A DNA stretch of 64,000 nucleotides, taken from Candidatus Latescibacterota bacterium. GTDB lineage: Bacteria > Latescibacterota > UBA2968 > GCA-2709665. The translations under genes were made by a program, and so were the position numbers. Numbering within the stretch: the stretch's first letter is position 1; the number at the start of each line of letters is the position of its first letter. The stretch is taken from assembly GCA_965203805.1 (NCBI GenBank), contig OZ241917.1, positions 2,336,001 to 2,400,000 of the forward strand, in the 5' to 3' direction. The notes beneath the pieces are model-generated. The model saw only the letters and a list, made by a program, of their open reading frames with translations, made no database searches and had not been told where the DNA came from. Shown here piece by piece: positions 54,011-64,000 of the stretch.

Positions 54011-54216
54011 CGTCGGTACGTGATGTTGTCAAGGAAGAGGTACATTGAATTTCCGGTCGGTCGAGCGTGCTTCTCACGCGACAACGTCGATTGACTTGAC
54101 CCGAAAAACTGGTATCCTGAGAGAATTGGTTGACATCGCGAATCGAATGGCGACACGGCGGCACTGCAGGTCGTTTCTGTGCCGAAGGCACGTGGATAGT
54201 TGAAAAGGAGATTTTC

Positions 54217-54417
54217 ATGCTCAACACGGCATTGGGGATCGTGAAAGATGGCAGAATCGAGACGTTGGAACGCATCTCGTTGCCCGAAGGAAAGAGGGTG
54301 CTGGTGACGATCTTGCCCGATGACGATAGTTTCTGGCAGGAAGCCAGCCGGGAAACGCTGAAGCAAATCTGGGACAATAATGAGGACGATGTATATGTCC
54401 GATTACTTGACAAATGA
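54217..54417 (+). CDS. Small antitoxin-like protein (DUF104/AbrB-like N-terminus, WDN.EDD.Y tail)
   Basis: AAGGAG RBS; overlaps the downstream MazF-like ORF. Confidence 0.7.
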   Translation: MLNTALGIVKDGRIETLERISLPEGKRVLVTILPDDDSFWQEASRETLKQIWDNNEDDVYVRLLDK

Positions 54418-54565
54418 TATCGTTCTCGTCCGATTTCCGTTTTCCGACTTGCAGATGTCCAAAGTGCGCCCGGCCATTATTGTGAGCGGGCTCCATATTT
54501 CCCAGGATGTCTTTATTGTCCCGCTAACCAGCAGAATGACAAACCTTCTACCCGCCACGATCTGA
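54395..54565 (+). pseudogene. 3'-truncated PemK/MazF toxin
   Basis: DIVLVRFPFSDL...KVRPAIIVS...IVPLTS then stops at 56 aa, about half the normal length. Confidence 0.75.
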
Positions 54566-54727
54566 TCGGACGCGATCTCACGCCGGAGATCCCCCGGCGT
54601 CAGCACTGGAAGCCCGCGCTTTCCTTTTTGTTTCTGACTCTTTTCGCCATTCCGATTCAATCACTGTTCTAATGAACGATTCTCGCCGGGCTGCCGCCTT
54701 TGATGGCGAGATTGTGTGCCAGTTAAT

Positions 54728-55492
54728 TTACCTCTCGTACAGAGTCTCAATTGGCCGATAGTCACTGGAAACCGGAAGCCGGCGTTCGATCACTTCTCCA
54801 TGCTCGACGTGAAGGGAATACGCTCCCGCCCCGGGACTGGCGGCGATGATCCTGTACCCGTCGGATGTAAACGCGACCGCGCAGTCGTTGTCGATGGCCA
54901 GGCCGTTCCCGCGCTTCCGTTTCATCATCTCATGGAAGTCCCGCCTTCTAGGGACGCCGGCGGTGTCTCCGTTGTAGTGAGGACACGCCAGACCTCTCAA
55001 CAACCCCATCCCGGTGACGGCTATGTAGCGCCAGTCGTCAGGCCTGTAGAACGACATCGAATCGCTGTGGCCCCGCTCAAACCAGCAGATCGCGCCCGCG
55101 CTCACGCCGCACAGCACCGCTCCCCCGGCGTACGCGGACCTGATCAGGGCATCGACCCCCAGCCGACGCCACCGGCGCATCATCTTCAGCGTGTTACCGC
55201 CCCCGGCGTAGATGATGTCCGCGCGTTCGATCTTCTCCGCAATCGCCTCGCGCGAAGGCGCAGCACCCAGAAGGTAGAGCACATCGGTGTCACAGCCGTA
55301 GTTCTCACGATACGCCCGGTCGAACCCTTCCCAATACGACACCGAGTCGCTGCTGGCCGTGGGAATGAACAGCGCGTTCGGACGCGACACGCCGGACAGC
55401 GCGATGATCTCGACGTCTATGGGGCGGGTTGCCAATGTTTCGAGGTCCCCTCCCCCTATCGCAACGATGCTGCCCATGCCGCTAACCTCCAC
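54728..55492 (-). CDS. Peptidase E (S51)
   Basis: IVAIGGG, FIPTAS, GGGNT, GVSAGAICW, CPHY. Confidence 0.88.
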   Translation of the reverse strand: MEVSGMGSIVAIGGGDLETLATRPIDVEIIALSGVSRPNALFIPTASSDSVSYWEGFDRAYRENYGCDTDVLYLLGAAPSREAIAEKIERADIIYAGGGNTLKMMRRWRRLGVDALIRSAYAGGAVLCGVSAGAICWFERGHSDSMSFYRPDDWRYIAVTGMGLLRGLACPHYNGDTAGVPRRRDFHEMMKRKRGNGLAIDNDCAVAFTSDGYRIIAASPGAGAYSLHVEHGEVIERRLPVSSDYRPIETLYER

Positions 55493-55732
55493 CGTCCACG
55501 ACGAACGGGCGCCGAGAGCGCCAGTCCGTCCGCTCCTTGTTCGCTCTGCCTTTGGCGACCCGGACAGTCTCGCGCGGCGTACGGTACCATCGGGGTGACA
55601 GACAAGCGTACAAATTCAGCCAACCCATTTGACGCCATGACACTTAAGGACGTGTGGTGAGAGAACCAGTTGACAACGCGAATCAAAACTGGTAGTTATA
55701 TTGCAGACAATACAACGACACGGAGGCTTCCG

Positions 55733-55987
55733 GTGAAAACCGCTCTCGTTCAAATCGGTAATTCGCGCGGCATCCGCATCCCCAAGGCGTTCCTGGAACA
55801 GTGTCACCTTCAGGACGTCGTGGAACTCGAACACCACGGCGACCATTTGATTATTCGCCCACCGACCCAACCTCGGTGCGGATGGGACGACGCCTTTCGC
55901 AACATGGGCAAACACCAGGACGACACACTAGTCGACGACCAGTCTCAGCCAGCTACCGAGTGGGACAACACGGAGTGGGAATGGTAG
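55733..55987 (+). CDS. mazE: AbrB/MazE family antitoxin
   Basis: GGAGG RBS, GTG start, IGNSRGIRIPK, acidic EWEW tail. Confidence 0.88.
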   Translation: MKTALVQIGNSRGIRIPKAFLEQCHLQDVVELEHHGDHLIIRPPTQPRCGWDDAFRNMGKHQDDTLVDDQSQPATEWDNTEWEW

Positions 55988-56304
55988 TTGCGCGTTTCGA
56001 CGTCTACCTGGTGCGGCTCGATCCTACACAAGGGCGCGAGATTCAAAAAACGCGCCCTTGTGTCGTAATATCGCCGGATGAGATGAACCGGCACATAGAA
56101 ACCGTCATCGTTGCCCCGATGACTACAAAAGGTCGCACTTATCCCACCCGCGTCCCCTTGCGTTTTCAGAGAAAAGTCGGACAGATCGTACTCGATCAGG
56201 TACGCACCGTTGACAAATCACGCCTGGTCCGTCGCCTTGGAAAGATTAGCGACAGGGCGGCGCTGCAGATCCTTTCTGTGCTGAAGGAGATGTTCGCGTC
56301 GTAG
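55981..56304 (+). CDS. mazF: PemK/MazF toxin
   Basis: LDPTQGREIQKTRPCVVISPDEMN, IVAPMT, DQVRTVDK.RL; overlaps the antitoxin stop. Confidence 0.92.
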   Translation: MVVARFDVYLVRLDPTQGREIQKTRPCVVISPDEMNRHIETVIVAPMTTKGRTYPTRVPLRFQRKVGQIVLDQVRTVDKSRLVRRLGKISDRAALQILSVLKEMFAS

Positions 56305-56469
56305 TTTTCCGCGTGCGAGGCCTTTAGATACGCAGGTTGCCGACACACACCCGGCGATCCGGAAAGGATGTATCACGACAATTCTGTCGCGTTGGTTTCC
56401 GGTGACGGCGCAAGTCCTCCTGCCAAGTGCGCCAACAAGCTCCCGAAGTCTACAGAAGGAGCGTACCTG

Positions 56470-56670
56470 ATGAAACCTTCGGTCCCATTTGAAAAACACC
56501 ATTTCGAATTCCTCAGCCATCCGGACCGCGCTCGCGCCTACCTCGAGGTCGCGCTGGAGGAATACGCCAGAGACAGGGATCGAACCGTCCTTCTGCTGGC
56601 TCTGAAGGACGTTGCGACGGCAAGGGGCGGGCCTGAAGCGCGTCGGACTTCTCTTACGCGGAATGGGTAG
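56470..56670 (+). pseudogene. Truncated addiction-module antidote protein
   Basis: AYLEVALEE...LLLALKDVATARGG; the HTH half that normally follows is missing. Confidence 0.65.
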
Positions 56671-56757
56671 TGACAAGGCGGTACCGTCCGGGAAAATGGG
56701 ACTGGGCATGCCGCCGTTCGGCGATTCCAATCCCTTGCGGCTGAAGGCGACTTTCAT
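56630..56757 (-). pseudogene. 5' fragment of an Nmad3-like (nucleotide modification associated domain 3) gene, copy 1
   Basis: MKVAFSRKGLESPNGGMPSPIFPDGTALSLPIP resembles the recalled SRKGFDS..GG.PSPI.PDG...SLPIP N-terminus; similarity ends after about 40 aa. Confidence 0.6.
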
Positions 56758-56878
56758 GGATTCCCTGCCTCCCTGGATTCATTTCGGTTGCAAAAACCCA
56801 CGGTTTGATTGGAAGTCAAATTAGGGGTAAACGTCAGGGGCTTGTAGAGCGTGAATAGGGGGAAGTTTATTCCCAAGC

Positions 56879-56928
56879 AAAAAATAACCCTTGTTCTGAT
56901 GAAAGTAAATTTCGACAGAACAAGGGCT
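56879..56928 (-). terminator. Rho-independent terminator of the RelE/HTH operon
   Basis: Minus strand AGCCCTTGTTCTG-N17-CAGAACAAGGGTT followed by ATTTTTT, about 30 nt after the HTH gene stop. Confidence 0.75.
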
Positions 56929-56960
56929 GTATATGTCGTAATGTGCTCTTGGCTATAAAT

Positions 56961-57599
56961 TTAAGTCACAGCCGACACGTTACCGTATGATTTTTGAGGC
57001 GCTACAACAATCGGTTCTTCTGTCTCAATAACTTCTGTATCATCCTCGACTGTATCAGTTGTAAGTTCATCGATAAAATCGACGATTTTTGCCATGTCTT
57101 TCTGATTTGGCGTTTGTCCCTGAAGATTATTGAAACTGTATAGGAAAAGTCGCAGGATATTATATAGGTAATCCTTATAGAAGGTATTCACTCCTGTATG
57201 AATAGCCTTATCTCCCTGTACCAGATCAGCTAGCTTATTAAGGTAGTCGCGAATTTCAAACACACGTTGCTTAATGGCATGTGTTGCCACAGTTTCTGTT
57301 GAATCTGTTTTGTCGGTATCCAGGATAATCGTAACGTTCATGCCCAGGGCACTTGCGTGTTTGAAAAGAAAAGGTACGCTTATTCGATGGTCAGTGCCAT
57401 CCTCCAATGCCGCAATTTCCTTTTTTGACATACCCATCTTCTTCGCCAATTGTCTTTGGGTCATGTCCTTAGAACACCGGAGCGCACATAGTGCGCTTAT
57501 GACGATTCGATCCGCTAAACGTCGCTCTAACCGGCGTACAGAAGTAGCGGAGAGATTGTCCTGTGCCATTTCTAACACCGAATTATACGGAGCGGCCAT
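56961..57599 (-). CDS. XRE-family HTH protein, probable antitoxin with C-terminal extension
   Basis: LRCSKDMTQRQLAKKMGMSKKEIAALEDG; overlaps the upstream toxin-like gene. Confidence 0.8.
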   Translation of the reverse strand: MAAPYNSVLEMAQDNLSATSVRRLERRLADRIVISALCALRCSKDMTQRQLAKKMGMSKKEIAALEDGTDHRISVPFLFKHASALGMNVTIILDTDKTDSTETVATHAIKQRVFEIRDYLNKLADLVQGDKAIHTGVNTFYKDYLYNILRLFLYSFNNLQGQTPNQKDMAKIVDFIDELTTDTVEDDTEVIETEEPIVVAPQKSYGNVSAVT

Positions 57600-57957
57600 T
57601 CGGTTTCTCCATTTCTAGTTTATGAATATAATCATGTCCCCAAAGGATATCGTGTTTTTGGGACTTTTTAAACCCAATGGCGATCAAATGAATCATAGAA
57701 GTCTCTAATTCCAAATAAAAGTATAATCGCGCTTCCGGCAATTTAAACGGCGCACCTCGTTGATCTACCGCGTAGAGTCCGTGACCCTCATTACGTACCT
57801 TTCCAAGCCGTACGATATTTTGAGGTCTATCAGAAATCTGTAAGGTCTCTTGCACGGTCGCTAGATTCTCAAGAAGTGCCTCCAAAGTGGCGCCATGTTT
57901 CTTACCGAATCTCTTCAATTGCCGCTGAAATTTATCCGAATGAAGAAACTCCCACAT
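57583..57957 (-). CDS. RelE/HigB-like toxin
   Basis: 124 aa; KFQRQLKRF, GLYAV, ARLYFY, IHLIAIG.K.SQ..DI; toxin-before-HTH order. Confidence 0.7.
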   Translation of the reverse strand: MWEFLHSDKFQRQLKRFGKKHGATLEALLENLATVQETLQISDRPQNIVRLGKVRNEGHGLYAVDQRGAPFKLPEARLYFYLELETSMIHLIAIGFKKSQKHDILWGHDYIHKLEMEKPNGRSV

Positions 57958-58203: not shown

Positions 58204-58302
58204 GAATCCAGTCGGAAGCCGGCATCCGCAGGCACGAACAGACCTGCCCGTCCATCATCCGTTTTTCTGACTGACCACTGACACTGATCACCGACCACTG
58301 CT
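58204..58302. repeat. 99-bp duplicate of the CRISPR array flank (paralogue of 62962-63060)
   Basis: Ungapped manual alignment gives 83/99 identity; both copies abut a degenerate repeat. Confidence 0.9.
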
Positions 58303-58350
58303 GCTTCACTCCTTGTCCTGATGGAAGATTCCCAGCGTGCCGATCAAGCC

Positions 58351-58527
58351 TCAGTCAGTATCCTGATCGGCGAAACGGCGGTCCATCTCAGCCCAGTGAG
58401 CGAGCTGCTCGGGGGTGGGGACGGGCATACCGGCCTTGCGGTAGTCTTCCGGCGAGTAGGGCGTCCCGTCCGGATGCCAGCACTGGAAAGCGGCGGGCTG
58501 CTGGCGATTTCGGATATCTTTCGGCAT
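58351..58527 (-). CDS. Repeat-associated small protein, paralogue 1 (58 aa; absent from the ORF track)
   Basis: MPKDIRNRQQPAAFQCWHPDGTPYSPEDYRKAGMPVPTPEQLAHWAEMDRRFADQDTD; ATG 5 nt after the repeat. Confidence 0.78.
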   Translation of the reverse strand: MPKDIRNRQQPAAFQCWHPDGTPYSPEDYRKAGMPVPTPEQLAHWAEMDRRFADQDTD

Positions 58528-58655
58528 AAGCAGTTCTAATCCTTTCTCTGATGGAAGATTCTCGCCGGGAATGACGGCAGAATCCAGCAGCGGGGAGGGA
58601 GATCCTTCCAGGTGACCAAATTCTATGAGGTGGAGCTGATGTATCCGACACGGGA

Positions 58656-58841
58656 TTAACCGAAGTAACGGGCCTTGATCTCCGCGATCGTCCGATCCAT
58701 CCGGTCCCGGTGAGCCCGGTGCTCAGGCGTCGGGACGGGCATCCCCGCCTTGCGATAGTCCGCATCGGAATAGGGGGTTCCATCCGGATGCCAGACTTCA
58801 AAGATCTTCGGACCTTCTCGATTTTGGAAATCCTGTGGCAT
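58656..58841 (-). CDS. Repeat-associated small protein, paralogue 2 (61 aa)
   Basis: MPQDFQNREGPKIFEVWHPDGTPYSDADYRKAGMPVPTPEHRAHRDRMDR...; ATG 5 nt after the repeat. Confidence 0.78.
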   Translation of the reverse strand: MPQDFQNREGPKIFEVWHPDGTPYSDADYRKAGMPVPTPEHRAHRDRMDRTIAEIKARYFG

Positions 58842-58910
58842 AAGCAGTTTCAATCCTTTCTGTGATGGAAGTTTCTCACCGCGTATTTTCTCGTGGAGCT
58901 TGATTGAGGA

Positions 58911-59084
58911 CTAGCGGTCTTCGCTGGCGCGTTCATGGTCCTGTTCAGCCCACAAGGCCATTTGCTCAGGGATGGGGACGGGGAGGCCGATACGGCGGTA
59001 GTCTTCCGGGGTGGCCGGTGTGCCGTATGGACGCCAGACGCGCCACGGGCCGCCGGTTTGTTTGTTGTGCTTTGGTGTGGTCAT
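58911..59084 (-). CDS. Repeat-associated small protein, paralogue 3 (57 aa)
   Basis: MTTPKHNKQTGGPWRVWRPYGTPATPEDYRRIGLPVPIPEQMALWAEQD...; ATG 4 nt after the repeat. Confidence 0.75.
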   Translation of the reverse strand: MTTPKHNKQTGGPWRVWRPYGTPATPEDYRRIGLPVPIPEQMALWAEQDHERASEDR

Positions 59085-59149
59085 ATCGGTTTCAGTCCTT
59101 GTTTTGATGGAAGATTCTCGCCGGGAATTCACTCGGCATTGCTACGTCT

Positions 59150-59485
59150 TCAGTTGGAAGCCCTGGGTACGGGCGTGGCGACGGGCTTGTCCGTCCGGTA
59201 GTACTGGCTTCGACGTCCTACGATATGGGCCCTGCCCTGTTCGACGGCATCAAGGTCGAAATTGCCCGATCCATGGTCTCGGATAAACGACCGGGCCAGG
59301 ATGCGGCCGCGCGGTGACAATTTCAGGTGCCGGAACAACTCGTCGACCGTCGCGTCGCTGGCAAATTCGCCCCGCATCGTGTTAACGGCTACCGCCTGGA
59401 GCCGGGACAGGTACGCGACTTCGTCCATGTGTTTACGGACGCCGTATTTGCCCTTCCTCGGCTTATCTATGACGAATCTGGGCAT
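59150..59485 (-). CDS. Hypothetical basic protein (111 aa) in the fourth inter-repeat gap
   Basis: ORF lies wholly between repeats, same strand as the paralogues; no recognised motif. Confidence 0.55.
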   Translation of the reverse strand: MPRFVIDKPRKGKYGVRKHMDEVAYLSRLQAVAVNTMRGEFASDATVDELFRHLKLSPRGRILARSFIRDHGSGNFDLDAVEQGRAHIVGRRSQYYRTDKPVATPVPRASN

Positions 59486-59723
59486 AGAGCGGACCCCAAT
59501 ATCGGGTTGCCTGTACGGCTGCGCTGCTGGTCTCTCCGGTCACACGGTCCCGGGTGTTTTCGAGGGAACGCTCGCCGCCAGGAAGCGAGCTCTCGTCAAA
59601 CCCCAGCTTATGATTGTTGTTTCAATCGTTGTACTGATGGAAGATTCTCGCCGGGCGTGGCGATACGGGCGGCTTTGGACATCAACCGGCGAAGCGAATG
59701 GGCTGTGAACCCGAGGCCGGTTG

Positions 59724-60326
59724 TCATGCACGGTCCCGGTACTCTCCTTCACAATACCTGCGAATTCTCAACCCAAGCTCGCGCGCGTTTCGCTTGGACC
59801 AGAATCGGAAGTGCTTAACATATAGGAGTTCGCACGGGAGGTCCTTCCCCTGTAGCAACTCGGCAGCGTCCTTGCCGTGGGCAATCACCAGCCTGGGCGC
59901 GATCTGGCGCAAGAGATAGTCGAAGGAAGTCGAGATCTTGCTTCGCTCGTCCAGGTCCGATGCCTGATTAGTCGCTTTCGCGTAGACATTCGTCTCGAGG
60001 CATTTGACGGGACTGGCGCCCGAGACGACCTCCTCGATGATTCTTCGTGTGTTGCTTACTTCATTCCTTCTCTTTCTTCCGGGTTTCAGCGGGCGAGACC
60101 TTCGCTCCTCCTTGTACTTCTCGAACCACGCGCGTTTGTCGAATCCATAGCTGTCCGACCAGAAATCCCAGAAATCAACCGACATGCGGCTCGCGGGATT
60201 GATACCAACGAGGAACACATCGCAATCAAGCGGCGAACCCTCGCACACGAACGGACGCAGATCGGTCGGCCTGCCGATCAGAGATGCCAGGCCAAGGCTG
60301 AACTCGTGCAAGCTACTCGTTTCCAT
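59724..60326 (-). CDS. Uracil-DNA glycosylase superfamily-like protein
   Basis: VFLVGINPA, ETNVY, PRLVIAHGKDA, HF motifs; GAGG RBS. Confidence 0.65.
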   Translation of the reverse strand: METSSLHEFSLGLASLIGRPTDLRPFVCEGSPLDCDVFLVGINPASRMSVDFWDFWSDSYGFDKRAWFEKYKEERRSRPLKPGRKRRNEVSNTRRIIEEVVSGASPVKCLETNVYAKATNQASDLDERSKISTSFDYLLRQIAPRLVIAHGKDAAELLQGKDLPCELLYVKHFRFWSKRNARELGLRIRRYCEGEYRDRA

Positions 60327-60739
60327 TTTAGTCTTCCTCTCATTGATGTTCCAGGCCTATTCAGATTTATCCTCTCGGTTGACAGGAGTCGGCCGCCAGC
60401 CACAATCGGAATTCCGGATGTAGTGACAATAACTTAATCGTGCTTTGGCAGTCGAGAAACGCACCGGCTGTCACGCAGTGTGAATCCATACAAAAACACC
60501 GGCATAATGCCGGTCTCAGTCAATCGAAACAGTCTTGATAAACCTTCGGAAGGTAACGGAAAGTTCAATGCCCGTCGCGACTTTGGGCGGTGGATTACTG
60601 GAGAACAGATCTGGAACTCACGAGGTCGCCACCATGAACAAATGGATTTGGGTCAATCACCGGAGGTTGTAATGCTGATGCTTCTCGGTTTATCTCTAAG
60701 TTGTAGACAGATCGAACCAAGGAAACAGGTGCAGTGTAT

Positions 60740-61318
60740 CTACGTTGCGCTGACGTTCGAATCTGACCCCTGCCGCAGATATTCGTATCCACGTAGATTG
60801 GCCGTTTTTTTTGCAATTTTTTCAATTATCGATATTCTCGTCGACCTGGACGATAAATTAATCCCCAGTGCCTCGCCAATTTGCCTCAGCATTGAAATGT
60901 CGTACTTTTTTCGATCGGCCAAAGTGAGCTCGATATCTGACGACGTCAACCCTTTTAATTCTTCTGCTATAACCCTTGCATCCTCGCGGCTCTGTGCAGA
61001 ATAGGCATTGCGTGCGGTCTTCTTCGTCCCCTTGTTTCGTGATGACAGACCCAGAACTGACGAAAGCACAGGATCTGACTCTGCGACGCGTACACAGTCC
61101 TTGATAGATTCGATGGTCGATGTAACGCCTTCAACGTCTTCCCCTGCAGGAAGTGACCTTAGCCTTATCTGGAAATCTCTTAGGAACTTAATCAAGACCT
61201 CCAATTCTTGGTCAAGTCGATGTTTTGTCTCCTCCGTGGGCAAGGCGTCAACCAACTCGGACAGCCTGCTGAGAAAGTTGTCCAATTTCCTTCCGGTCAA
61301 TCTTACTGAATTGCTCAT
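60740..61318 (-). CDS. Hypothetical protein coupled to ParA
   Basis: TAATG overlap with the parA stop; helical; C-terminal LRQIGEALGINLSSRSTRISIIEKI is helix-extension-helix-like. Confidence 0.7.
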   Translation of the reverse strand: MSNSVRLTGRKLDNFLSRLSELVDALPTEETKHRLDQELEVLIKFLRDFQIRLRSLPAGEDVEGVTSTIESIKDCVRVAESDPVLSSVLGLSSRNKGTKKTARNAYSAQSREDARVIAEELKGLTSSDIELTLADRKKYDISMLRQIGEALGINLSSRSTRISIIEKIAKKTANLRGYEYLRQGSDSNVSAT

Positions 61319-62259
61319 TATTGAAATCTCTCCAGAAGTTCGTCGACGACTCGGGGATACTCCTGCTTGCCCGTCGCCCGCCTGGCGTTTTCAGAGTCAT
61401 GCAACCATATGGGCAGACTGTTTTCGGCAGCTTCAGTGTATCCGATCAATTCAGTCGTGTGGGTTGAAAAGCACTTGTCCCGGCCCAACTGCGACCGAAT
61501 TCCCTCCATTGTATTCGCATGGGCATTAGCGATCATTTCACCCCCGATTCGCACACGAACGAAAAGAACTGCGCCGAACTCAGCTACACGATGACTGTCC
61601 GCAGTTTCACCGGCCAATGCACCCGCATGCGTCATACGTTCGTCGATATCCCGGACTTTGTTTGTTAAAATGCTCAATCCAATTGTAGAAAGATGATCCG
61701 GTATCGCGGTCACAATGTAGTAGTCACTCGCGATAAGCGCGTTCTGCGTCATCAAATACAAATTCGGCGGGCAATCTATCAGAACAAAATCGTAATTGTC
61801 ACGGACTTCGTTGATGGCTTTAACTAGGAATTCCCGGTCTCGCATGGCCTGTTGTGCGTTCTTCCTCAGCATTTCCATACTTGGATATGCTCCTGAGATC
61901 TGCCCTCCGCCAATGTCCTCCCCTATCAGATCAATATCGCACGGGATCAAATCCAATCGTGGGTGACGGCGCCCGTCCCTTAAACGAATTGGAGTCTCCC
62001 ACAGATATCTCTTAACGTCAATGGGTTTCCTGTCCAGAAATCTCTTATACATAGTGGCAATTGTGCCAACTCTGGATTTCCGCCTTTTCCAGTCTTCAAT
62101 GGAAGCACATAGAAACGTAAGGTTTGTCTGTGGATCGATATCGATCAGCAAGACCTTCTTCTCTCTTAGTCCGGCAAGCCAACATCCGACATGGTAGGCT
62201 GATGTCGTCTTTGCGACGCCACCTTTGTAATTGATAAACGCGAAAACCTTTGCTGCCAC
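61318..62259 (-). CDS. ParA/Soj family ATPase
   Basis: NYKGGVAKTT deviant Walker A, IDIDPQ.NLT, IDCPP; low GC. Confidence 0.9.
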   Translation of the reverse strand: MAAKVFAFINYKGGVAKTTSAYHVGCWLAGLREKKVLLIDIDPQTNLTFLCASIEDWKRRKSRVGTIATMYKRFLDRKPIDVKRYLWETPIRLRDGRRHPRLDLIPCDIDLIGEDIGGGQISGAYPSMEMLRKNAQQAMRDREFLVKAINEVRDNYDFVLIDCPPNLYLMTQNALIASDYYIVTAIPDHLSTIGLSILTNKVRDIDERMTHAGALAGETADSHRVAEFGAVLFVRVRIGGEMIANAHANTMEGIRSQLGRDKCFSTHTTELIGYTEAAENSLPIWLHDSENARRATGKQEYPRVVDELLERFQ

Positions 62260-62814: not shown

Positions 62815-62916
62815 CGCCGATCGCGGCGCCGTCAACGTGAAACGGTCGCCGTCGCCGGAAAAGAGGGCTGCGCAGTTCACCGAGTTGAATTACTTGCGCC
62901 TGAAGACGATCTTCAT
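62815..62916 (-). pseudogene. Decayed Nmad3-like 5' fragment, copy 2
   Basis: ATG 62916: MKIVFRRK*FNSVN..SPLF../DGDRFTL; DNA aligns with 56713-56803 at a constant 6159-bp offset. Confidence 0.6.
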
Positions 62917-63060
62917 CGATTCTCCGCCTTTCCAGTTTCATTTCGGTTCTGATGACCCACGGAATCCAGGCGGAAGTCGGCATCCTCCGGCACGCAAATT
63001 CCCGCCCATGCATGATCCGTTTTGCTGACTGGTCACTGACACTGATCACCGACCACTGCC

Positions 63061-64000
63061 GCTGCAATCCTTGTTCTGATGGAAGATTCTCTCTGAGATG
63101 AGCAGATCGAAAAACGGCCCGGTGTGTATCACGGGTTTCAATCCTTGTTCTGATGGAAGATTCTCTCTGAGTGTTCGTCGGGCAACATCGTCCGCCCCAG
63201 ACCTTCCTGTTTCAATCCTTGTTCTGATGGAAGATTCTCTCTGAGTCTCCGTGGACGGGTTGATGTTCTGTCTTTGCACGTGTTGTTTCAATCCTTGTTC
63301 TGATGGAAGATTCTCTCTGAGTCCACGTCGGCATCCAGTTCGATACCGAGATAATGTGGTTTCAATCCTTGTTCTGATGGAAGATTCTCTCTGAGAAGTC
63401 CGCCCCAGATATAACCCCAATATACCCACGTGTTTCAATCCTTGTTCTGATGGAAGATTCTCTCTGAGACGGCGAGCCCAACTATCGCGCCGAAGAAGGT
63501 GACTCCAGTTTCAATCCTTGTTCTGATGGAAGATTCTCTCTGAGCGCTTAGAGCGTCTCTATTGCGTTCTGCGATACCGGTTTCAATCCTTGTTCTGATG
63601 GAAGATTCTCTCTGAGCGCGTAATAAAGCGCTTCACCACCGTCAAAGCCTTCCGGTTTCAATCCTTGTTCTGATGGAAGATTCTCTCTGAGAATCGGGCG
63701 GCCCGTCTTTTACGCGTACAACAACAGTTTCAATCCTTGTTCTGATGGAAGATTCTCTCTGAGACATCACATCTTCAGGATCACCGAGTGTGGCGATCTG
63801 TTTCAATCCTTGTTCTGATGGAAGATTCTCTCTGAGCCAAGCGTTGGCGCGGGCCACGCCGTCGACGGACTCCATGTTTCAATCCTTGTTCTGATGGAAG
63901 ATTCTCTCTGAGCGCAAGGGGTTCCCCGAGCACCAGGCCCTGATTTAGTTTCAATCCTTGTTCTGATGGAAGATTCTCTCTGAGTTCGAATGATACCGAT
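63061..64000 (-). CRISPR. CRISPR array: 13 repeats and 12 complete spacers (35-39 bp); continues past the window
   Basis: Repeat GTTTCAATCCTTGTTCTGATGGAAGATTCTCTCTGAG at 63061 (2 mismatches), 63135, 63209, 63285, 63359, 63432, 63508, 63580, 63655, 63727, 63800, 63876, 63948. The reverse complement ends in ATTGAAAC and the degenerate copy is at 63061, so transcription on the minus strand is inferred. Confidence 0.98.

Follow-up and report, generated by a model that had tools for sequence, protein, structure and literature searches.

A degenerate type I-B CRISPR repeat as putative leader of a small protein-coding gene family in one genus of Latescibacterota

Background

[quoted passage not shown] Here we describe a locus in which such repeats stand directly in front of protein-coding genes. 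It was found in a 64,000-nucleotide (nt) stretch of the genome of a Candidatus Latescibacterota bacterium (assembly GCA_965203805.1, contig OZ241917.1, positions 2,336,001 to 2,400,000), which we refer to as the window. The locus contains five degenerate copies of a type I-B repeat (R1 to R5), separated by three paralogous small genes and one gene encoding a protein of 111 amino acids (aa).

Four described systems come closest to this arrangement. In the CreTA and CreR systems, degenerate ectopic repeats found next to type I cas loci (I-B among them) have a non-immune regulatory role that requires CRISPR RNA (crRNA) processing and Cascade (PMC9458426, PMC8501985, 10.1101/2023.03.10.532045, PMC10120712). 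As described there, the insert in these systems is a spacer-sized non-coding guide against a promoter, and the toxin under control is an RNA, whereas the repeats studied here stand next to the start codons of protein-coding genes, and no guide target was detected. The Racr elements share with our locus a repeat mimic within about 10 nt of a small protein gene in one operon (PMC10651486). However, Racrs belong to mobile elements, and the repeat of the case described there lies downstream of the acr gene, in contrast to the upstream, leader-like, chromosomal, and genus-wide position reported here, for which we found no viral relatives. The small RNA s479 of Haloferax volcanii is a non-crRNA transcript beside a type I-B locus that has a 5' handle resembling that of a crRNA. 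There are indications that it is matured by Cas6 and interacts with Cas proteins, but it is described as a non-coding regulator of zinc-transport mRNAs and not as an mRNA leader (PMC8155600). Finally, engineered Csy4/Cas6 leader sites demonstrate that a site for a Cas6-family enzyme within an mRNA can control its stability and translation, although this is a synthetic device with a hairpin repeat (PMC4604432). No natural conserved counterpart of the latter switches appeared in the literature searched, and none of the four systems, as described, has a protein-coding 'spacer' with its start codon against the repeat.

Integron gene cassettes also form arrays of small, mostly promoterless genes that are parted by one repeated site and vary in number and order. 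The present locus differs from them in that its repeat is unstructured, with no attC-like hairpin, and no integron integrase is present among the neighbours examined. The literature searched contains no description of a gene-bearing repeat arrangement of this kind; supplementary lists of solitary repeats and mini-arrays (PMC10651486, PMC10120712), which were outside the search, may hold such loci. A repeat that serves genus-wide as the leader of a protein-coding gene, and that has also been joined anew to arrays of different subtypes, would extend the uses listed above by a further one. If true, it would tie protein translation directly to the crRNA-processing machinery, and the locus offers a simple natural parallel, open to testing, to the engineered Cas6/Csy4 leader switches. 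It also illustrates that 'arrays with very long spacers', which are usually dropped by CRISPR finders, can conceal real genes, in this case a small protein family of no assigned function whose genes show tight linkage with type I CRISPR loci and a defence island.

Results

Anatomy of the gene-bearing array

The window ends within the main type I-B array (Table 1), in which the repeats start 72-76 nt apart and the copy at 63061 is the degenerate terminal repeat. Its cas genes are located just outside the window on the minus strand, in the order cas6b-cas8-cas7-cas5-cas3-cas1-cas2-cas4. Pfam matches in this operon include Cas6b_N and Cas6b_C, DevR, Cas5, Cas3 (HD and helicase), Cas1, and Cas4, and NCBIfam assigns the Cas7 protein to type I-B Cst2/DevR. 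The large-subunit gene has only a weak CXXC match and no NCBIfam match, while cas2 is a cas2-sized open reading frame (ORF) named by eye only. The main array and its operon thus make up a type I-B CRISPR-Cas locus. Since the cas6b-to-cas4 operon, an AT-rich leader of about 170 nt between the operon and the first repeat, and the ATTGAAAC end of the array repeat are all found on the minus strand, the arrays are read from that strand, in agreement with the orientation assumed in the initial annotation of this DNA.

The second array lies 3.4 kilobases (kb) downstream of the main one. A 15-mer of the repeat has 70 matches in the whole genome, all on one strand and in one region, with 65 of them in the main array and the remaining five in the second array. 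The five degenerate repeats belong to the family of the main-array repeat and have the same orientation. Their start-to-start distances, taken from R1 to R5, are 230, 314, 242, and 530 nt, in place of the even spacing and the spacers of about 30-40 nt that mark a regular array. The 'spacers' are 193-493 nt long and protein-coding.

On the minus strand, the repeat-gene junctions read R2-TGCTT-ATG (58527), R3-TGCTT-ATG (58841), and R4-CGAT-ATG (59084), and the AAGGA motif within the repeat is placed 12, 12, and 11 nt before the respective ATG codons. These junctions and distances are exactly those given in the initial annotation, and its account of the copy at 59619-59655 as the one repeat with an altered motif and no start codon beside it was likewise borne out. 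In the window there are three occurrences of the pattern AAGGAYTRRAAC-N4-5-ATG, against none in 100 shuffles, and no main-array repeat inside the window matches it. AAGGA itself is present in every main-array repeat, and is thus a property of the repeat family rather than an adaptation of the gene-bearing copies. As the three junctions involve paralogues, they do not represent independent events, and independent support has to come from other genomes.

The three small proteins (58, 61, and 57 aa) are 47-60% identical to each other and share an invariant core; their family is marked by a WHPDGTP motif. The DNA differences between small genes 1 and 2 are concentrated at third codon positions, which indicates that these are real genes. 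Neither the small proteins nor the 111-aa protein belong to a family in Pfam or PADLOC. A 37%-identical homologue of the 111-aa protein is encoded in locus L036, where its gene is also placed between repeats.

Table 1. Positions of the features discussed in the text. Positions without a locus name refer to the window.
Feature	Position	Strand	Remarks
Main type I-B CRISPR array	63061..64000	minus	37-nt repeats, 35-39-nt spacers; runs past the window end, about 65 repeats in all
Terminator-like hairpin with T-run	60498..60514	minus	between the ParA-like/192-aa gene pair and the UDG-like gene
UDG-like gene	59724..60326	minus	immediate upstream neighbour of the gene-bearing array; below cut-off in Pfam (UDG, E 7.7e-4)
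R5, first repeat in reading direction	59619..59655	minus	AACGA replaces AAGGA; no adjacent start codon
Gene for 111-aa protein	59150..59485	minus	between two repeats; ORF start about 134 nt after R5; no family match
R4	59089..59125	minus	predicted 8-nt handle (59089-59096) reads ACTGAAAC; AAGGA 11 nt before ATG
Small gene 3 (57 aa)	58911..59084	minus	most diverged paralogue; ATG 4 nt after R4
R3	58847..58883	minus	handle (58847-58854) intact (ATTGAAAC)
Small gene 2 (61 aa)	58656..58841	minus	ATG 5 nt after R3
R2	58533..58569	minus	handle (58533-58540) reads ATTAGAAC
Small gene 1 (58 aa)	58351..58527	minus	ATG 5 nt after R2
R1, terminal repeat	58303..58339	minus	most degenerate copy; no conserved gene after it
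Trailer	58204..58302	minus	85% identical to the main-array trailer (62962-63089)
zacA-zacB-zacC operon	L036 6415-7650		PADLOC; Pfam DUF6361, PLD-like, helicase
zacA-zacB-zacC operon	L038 9516-10754		PADLOC; Pfam DUF6361, PLD-like, helicase
zacA-zacB-zacC operon	L041 2130-3341		PADLOC; Pfam DUF6361, PLD-like, helicase
zacA-zacB-zacC operon	L044 12319-13530		PADLOC; Pfam DUF6361, PLD-like, helicase

Conservation of the repeat-gene unit

The arrangement is very probably real, conserved, and under selection: a small gene family with a CRISPR repeat as its leader, located on the trailer side of the type I loci of one genus. A scan of one genome per species returned 12 loci with the small gene, and in ten of them the same repeat precedes the gene start. 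In a profile search that covered 168 genomes of the phylum, the gene was found in 14, including the genome of the window (G000), 12 of the 14 other members of its genus, and one of the two genomes in the sister genus, while none of about 147 genomes in the other families of the phylum carried it. There are one to six copies per genome, and their order is variable. The family comprises 22 clusters at 90% identity, and 56 matches at E <= 0.001 were obtained among 1.84 billion representative proteins.

We then took a census of every distinct copy with the conserved core (n=32). An I-B-like repeat (0-5 mismatches in 26) with an in-frame ATG precedes 23 of these copies, and the ATG is placed at +2 in one, +3 in two, +4 in 13, and +5 in seven of them. 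In two further copies the repeat is located about 115-125 nt upstream of the gene, and the remaining seven have no I-B-like repeat within 200 nt. Two of the latter are found directly behind the last repeat of a type I-C array (at +5 and +13 nt), three have a decayed repeat in front as judged by eye, one is fused to the C-terminus of a PDC-S11-like nuclease, and one comes from a record titled Binatia. As a control, an ATG at +2 to +5 was found in 2 of 50 true array spacers.

Two loci from records titled Gemmatimonadota (L036 and L041) were considered as cases of cross-phylum transfer and dropped, as their cassettes match those of genomes G053 and G052, with contig coordinates in agreement, and their genomes fall in the genus of the window; once they were placed there, no cross-phylum spread was seen. 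The block consisting of small genes 1, 2, and 3 and the 111-aa gene (window 58470-59517) recurs at about 91% identity in contigs from runs that are labelled as sponge metagenome (X4 and X6). In X4 there are 88 differences and 10 gaps over 1048 nt, and one of the differences in these contigs is an insertion of 4 nt where the 111-aa gene starts.

Selection on the gene and the repeat

We compared sequence identity among 22 repeat-gene units using the 96 pairs with saturated third codon positions. Identity was 0.37 at third codon positions and 0.68 at positions 1 and 2 of the conserved core. The 37-nt repeat was 0.77 identical, a value that is biased upward in the core because the units had been chosen by a 26-nt core pattern, and its 5' 11 nt, which are outside that pattern, were 0.66 identical. 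The flanking sequences reached 0.25 for the 40 nt upstream of the repeat and 0.30 for the 40 nt after the stop codon. Selection acts on both the gene and the repeat.

The position of a repeat relative to the genes is reflected in its state. Repeats in front of genes have 0-5 mismatches, and the terminal repeats behind the last gene have from three to more than seven. By eye, AAGGA is intact in 18 of the 22 units and is replaced by GGGGA (two units), AGGGA (one), or AAAGA (one) in the rest. In front of zacA, the first gene of an operon that follows the last degenerate repeat in other genomes, the repeat remnant keeps only AAGGA, at the optimal distance of 8 nt before the ATG, and has lost its ATTGAAAC end; zacA starts 1 nt after this very degenerate repeat. 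Judging from the sequence of this case, AAGGA seems to be all that survives where only a ribosome-binding site is needed. The conservation of the whole repeat in genomes without Cas6b is accounted for by none of the readings discussed below.

Relation to cas genes and CRISPR-Cas subtypes

Within the genus sample of 15 genomes (including G000), the small gene is present in 13 and Cas1 in ten, and all ten Cas1-positive genomes carry the gene. The gene occurs without Cas1 in three genomes, of which two are complete chromosomes and one is a draft, and neither is present in two others. In all eight genomes where both are on one contig, the small genes are located 2.4-26 kb downstream of cas1 on the same strand. 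The subtype of the neighbouring system is not constant. G000 has a type I-B system, G001 has a type I-MYXAN system with a different Cas6 family and an unrelated array repeat, and G002 and G005 have type I-C systems with I-C arrays. In the complete genomes G003 and G004 no CRISPR-Cas system was found (no Cas1, no Cas3 over the cut-off, no Cas6b, and no DevR-type Cas7), and their cassettes are intact. The generic Cas6 model TIGR01877 found nothing even in G000 and is therefore uninformative.

Several observations concern arrays and cas genes in these genomes. In L037 (6214-6384) and L039 (9177-9347), a degenerate mini-array of three repeats with a normal spacing of 72-73 nt comes after the small gene, directly in the former and after a 3-kb insert in the latter. 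An IS256-family transposase is inserted between cas3 and cas5c in the type I-C operon of G005 (L047 5904-7193). Outside the window, at about position 2,900,548 of G000, there is a second Cas1 match in an open frame of 661 aa with helicase-like matches some 10-17 kb upstream; this region is probably a second CRISPR-Cas locus with a repeat that differs from the one studied here.

The repeat as ribosome-binding site and Cas6b substrate

The genome shows clear use of Shine-Dalgarno sites, with a peak of AAGGA at 7-9 nt before the ATG (68, 53, and 50 genes). At 11 and 12 nt the motif precedes 16 and 10 genes, respectively, or 2.5-4 times the background of about four. The AAGGA carried by the repeat is thus usable yet suboptimal as a ribosome-binding site. 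With respect to cleavage, Cas6b was reported in two species to cut 37-nt type I-B repeats that end in ATTGAAAC at 8 nt from their 3' end, leaving an 8-nt AUUGAAAC tag (PMC3479195). The repeat of our locus is unstructured like those in that report, and a hairpin or otherwise structured repeat was rejected as its folding energies were no better than those of shuffles. The ATTGAAAC handle is intact in R3 and has one or two changes in R2 and R4.

We favour a reading in which the repeat has been domesticated to serve as leader and ribosome-binding site and is sensitive to Cas6b wherever Cas6b is present. On the trailer side of the CRISPR locus, the entire leader of the small WHPDGTP-motif gene would derive from an old type I-B repeat, whose AAGGA would act as the ribosome-binding site, and translation would start at the ATG 4-5 nt past the repeat end. 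In most genomes of the genus, where Cas6b is absent, the protein would simply be made from this repeat leader. In G000, which has an intact I-B system, the predicted cut by Cas6b lies 8 nt before the repeat end. Such a cut would leave a leader of 12-13 nt that lacks AAGGA and starts with the crRNA 5' handle, to which Cas5 and Cas7 could bind and thereby cover the start codon. The crRNA-processing machinery would in this way lower the expression of the small genes in G000. That the repeat supplies the ribosome-binding site and that its processing lowers expression in Cas6b-positive hosts such as G000 is a proposal we make tentatively.

Parts of this scheme were contained in the initial annotation, which had predicted that Cas6 would strip the Shine-Dalgarno site from each gene so that the proteins are translated only when Cas6 is absent or inhibited. 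The enzyme is there in the form of Cas6b, and the assumed cut 8 nt from the repeat 3' end coincides with the position reported for I-B 37-nt repeats with the ATTGAAAC end (PMC3479195). The geometry is also as predicted: with AAGGA 11-12 nt and the putative cut 12-13 nt before the ATG, the motif would stay on the upstream fragment. The strict form of the claim, translation only without Cas6, fits the Shine-Dalgarno usage of the genome and this geometry, and fits poorly with the spacing of AAGGA, the many genes without such a motif, and the scarcity of Cas6b in the genus. An addiction module, as one interpretation offered there, is disfavoured by G003 and G004, because cassettes that stay intact in genomes without these cas genes argue against toxin killing upon Cas loss; the same holds for a toxin that guards the cas genes, as the gene persists intact where they are missing. 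Nor would the mRNA left by the predicted cut be leaderless, since its leader would still be 12-13 nt long.

A number of observations weigh against the proposed regulation by Cas6b. (i) The uniform +4/+5 spacing may just mirror common descent, the units having arisen by duplication. (ii) The distance of 11-12 nt belongs to the tail of the genome's AAGGA spacing distribution, and only a minority of the long ORFs examined show an AAGGA-type motif at a working distance; with so many genes lacking it, loss of the Shine-Dalgarno site need not silence a gene, and a cut leader might still be translated. (iii) Compared with the array repeat, the cassette repeats carry changes at 2-4 positions of the 26-nt core and further ones over the 37 nt, and two of the three are altered within the handle, so Cas6b may not cut R2-R4. 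(iv) Cas6b (Pfam Cas6b_C) is present in 3 of the 15 genus genomes versus 13 with the small gene, and repeats with 0-3 core mismatches precede genes in I-C and cas-free genomes; in most of the genus, then, conservation of the repeat is not owed to Cas6b. The mean number of core mismatches is 3.2 (n=5) in Cas6b-positive genomes versus 2.4 (n=18) elsewhere, a difference that carries no weight given so small a sample of such closely related genomes. (v) A terminator-like site upstream of the gene-bearing array (Table 1) leaves the promoter of this array unassigned.

The latter site comes from a scan that used a consensus only and returned four sites versus 5.5 expected. Should the hairpin be genuine, transcripts of the main array would not simply continue into the gene-bearing one. 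A consensus promoter scan found no promoter inside the repeat at the cassettes, and no -35/-10-like hexamers were recognized by eye, although this is weak evidence given that the promoter type of this phylum may differ from the consensus used.

A more elaborate version of Cas6b control, in which the leaders act as a tripwire that reports CRISPR failure, appears improbable to us. Under this scenario, the repeats would punctuate the operon and gate its translation: working Cas6b and Cascade would cleave the leaders, mask them, and so prevent the small proteins from being made, whereas blocked processing or assembly, or the loss of cas genes, would let uncut leaders be translated into proteins that switch on or assist back-up defences. 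The possible triggers would include a phage anti-CRISPR, a repeat decoy, and cas loss, and the defences meant would be ZacABC, the PDC-S11-like nuclease, the GmrSD-like protein, and the UDG/EEP genes.

Alternative explanations

The main rival to Cas6b-sensitive control, possible though in our view doubtful, is that the repeat is a domesticated leader and nothing else. A gene that at some point ended up inside an array would have inherited it as 5' leader and ribosome-binding site, the worn copies of the repeat would no longer be Cas6b substrates, and CRISPR-Cas would have no influence on expression. This explanation draws on the excess of cassette-bearing over Cas6b-bearing genomes and on the intact cassettes of the two complete genomes without cas genes. 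It is also consistent with the fate of decayed copies, in which AAGGA alone is kept, and with the canonical handle being found in one of five cassettes of Cas6b-positive genomes versus 9 of 18 elsewhere (again a small sample of related genomes). On the other hand, the 37 nt of the repeat as a whole, with the far 5' 11 nt included, are better kept than codon positions 1 and 2 of the protein core, which is more than a ribosome-binding site needs. A repeat without any tie to CRISPR-Cas also sits uneasily with the copies joined to I-C terminal repeats at similar spacing, and with the presence of the gene in every Cas1-positive genome.

The effect of cleavage might be the opposite of the one we favour. 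Cas6-type cuts leave 5'-OH ends, and engineered Csy4 sites insulate cistrons. Cas6b could turn a long precursor with little translation into one stable, monocistronic mRNA per gene, each with a short leader and a 5'-OH end, and the proteins would be made only when the I-B system is active. The presence of one repeat before each gene, like punctuation, and the many genes of this genome without a Shine-Dalgarno site are in line with such activation. Nevertheless, we consider it unlikely, as the genes stay intact and under purifying selection in genomes that lack Cas6b or all cas genes, where a Cas6b-dependent gene would be silent, and a 12-13-nt leader is not equivalent to leaderless.

About equally unlikely is a role at the DNA level, with the repeats acting as recombination or integration sites. 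The unit would duplicate and move between arrays that share the GGATTGAAAC end, as a hitch-hiker in arrays similar to an integron cassette. The variable copy number and order, the hybrid junctions with two I-C repeat types that have this same 3' end, and the other cargo between repeats (the 111-aa gene and a PEMT/ICMT-like gene in L040 at +0) or after the last repeat (zacABC) can all be explained by such movement. However, neither integrase nor transposase genes were found among the island genes examined, the only transposase being the IS256 element inside a cas operon, and the near restriction of the family to one genus gives little sign of mobility. Moreover, downstream and terminal repeats decay while upstream ones are kept, which fits a role in RNA or as a leader better than a two-sided recombination site.

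It is very unlikely that the locus is an anti-CRISPR module, with repeats as Racr-like RNA decoys and small proteins as anti-CRISPR proteins on a mobile element. The precedent is in phages, where solitary repeat units were reported beside small acr genes, in one case with 11 nt between the repeat and an AcrIC5 homologue (PMC10651486). The small proteins of our locus are indeed multi-copy and diversifying at both ends. In contrast to that setting, no relatives were detected in 2.9 million viral contigs, the genes are chromosomal and syntenic, at a position downstream of the host's own cas operon that is fixed in 8/8 genomes, and the neighbours are defence genes rather than phage or plasmid genes. 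The cassettes also coexist in G000 with a 65-repeat array of identical repeats. A mobile-element origin was rejected, given the absence of viral relatives, the yield of only one metagenome contig, and the lack of an integrase among the neighbouring genes examined.

Least probable of all is a guide RNA in the style of CreA or CreR (PMC9458426, PMC8501985, 10.1101/2023.03.10.532045, PMC10120712), in which the handle and the first 30-40 nt of a 'spacer' would direct Cascade to repress a target promoter: the degenerate repeats beside a type I-B locus recall those systems as described, but the inserts are long and protein-coding, and this reading was rejected since the first 40 nt after each repeat have no second target in the genome beyond chance-level matches of 14-21 nt.

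Defence-gene neighbourhood and further observations

The cassettes are embedded in a co-directional island of defence-type genes, which encode UDG-like proteins, an EEP nuclease, Nmad3, a GmrSD-like endonuclease, SRAP, and a ParA-like ATPase with its 192-aa partner. UDG-like homologues are found near the cassettes in five loci, the window included. The zacABC operon is located directly behind the last degenerate repeat in four loci (Table 1). Between the two arrays of the window (60740-62259, minus strand), the ParA-like ATPase (313 aa) is accompanied by the overlapping 192-aa gene, and this pair recurs beside the cassettes in L037 and L040. Downstream of the cassettes (54130-57957), there are toxin-antitoxin-like pairs, including an XRE-type helix-turn-helix protein (Pfam) that overlaps a 124-aa partner, as well as MazF/PemK-like and AbrB-like ORFs recognized by eye only.

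Other genes also abut repeats. In L040 (2177-2727), a PEMT/ICMT-like membrane methyltransferase (174 aa) has its GTG start directly at the repeat end (+0). A possible second case is found in L044, at about 7150, where a repeat is again followed at once by GTG and the first bases resemble those in L040.

With regard to the small protein itself, the AlphaFold model (predicted local distance difference test score, pLDDT, of 76) shows a hairpin and two helices. A Foldseek search with this model returned nothing at E <= 0.001 in PDB or BFVD, and ESM Atlas gave no usable match. The small-protein domain also occurs within larger proteins. The 421-aa protein in L032 (6350-7615) combines the PADLOC candidate PDC-S11 in its first ~285 residues with the small-protein domain in its last ~70, with no repeat remnant at the domain junction, and two 450-aa proteins of the representative library (P0043 and P0044) contain the domain internally.

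In other genomes, several copies of the gene extend as far as the following repeat and stop at the TGA inside ATTGAAAC. A cut in such repeats would remove the stop codon of these copies, which are a minority, and the effect may be incidental. Public predicted proteins (P0025, P0030, P0032, P0038, and others) have C-terminal ends that are translated CRISPR repeat, with each of the three frames represented, indicating that gene callers run the small ORFs into the next repeat.

The stretches behind the two arrays of the window (58204-58331 and 62962-63089) are 85% identical, and a further 92 nt (56712-56803 versus 62871-62962) are 73% alike. Metagenome contigs that match the main-array trailer also align to the trailer at 58204-58302. 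These matches may represent a duplicated array end or a conserved trailer element. A similar CAGTGG(T/C)CGG motif is found behind the terminal repeats of other genomes.

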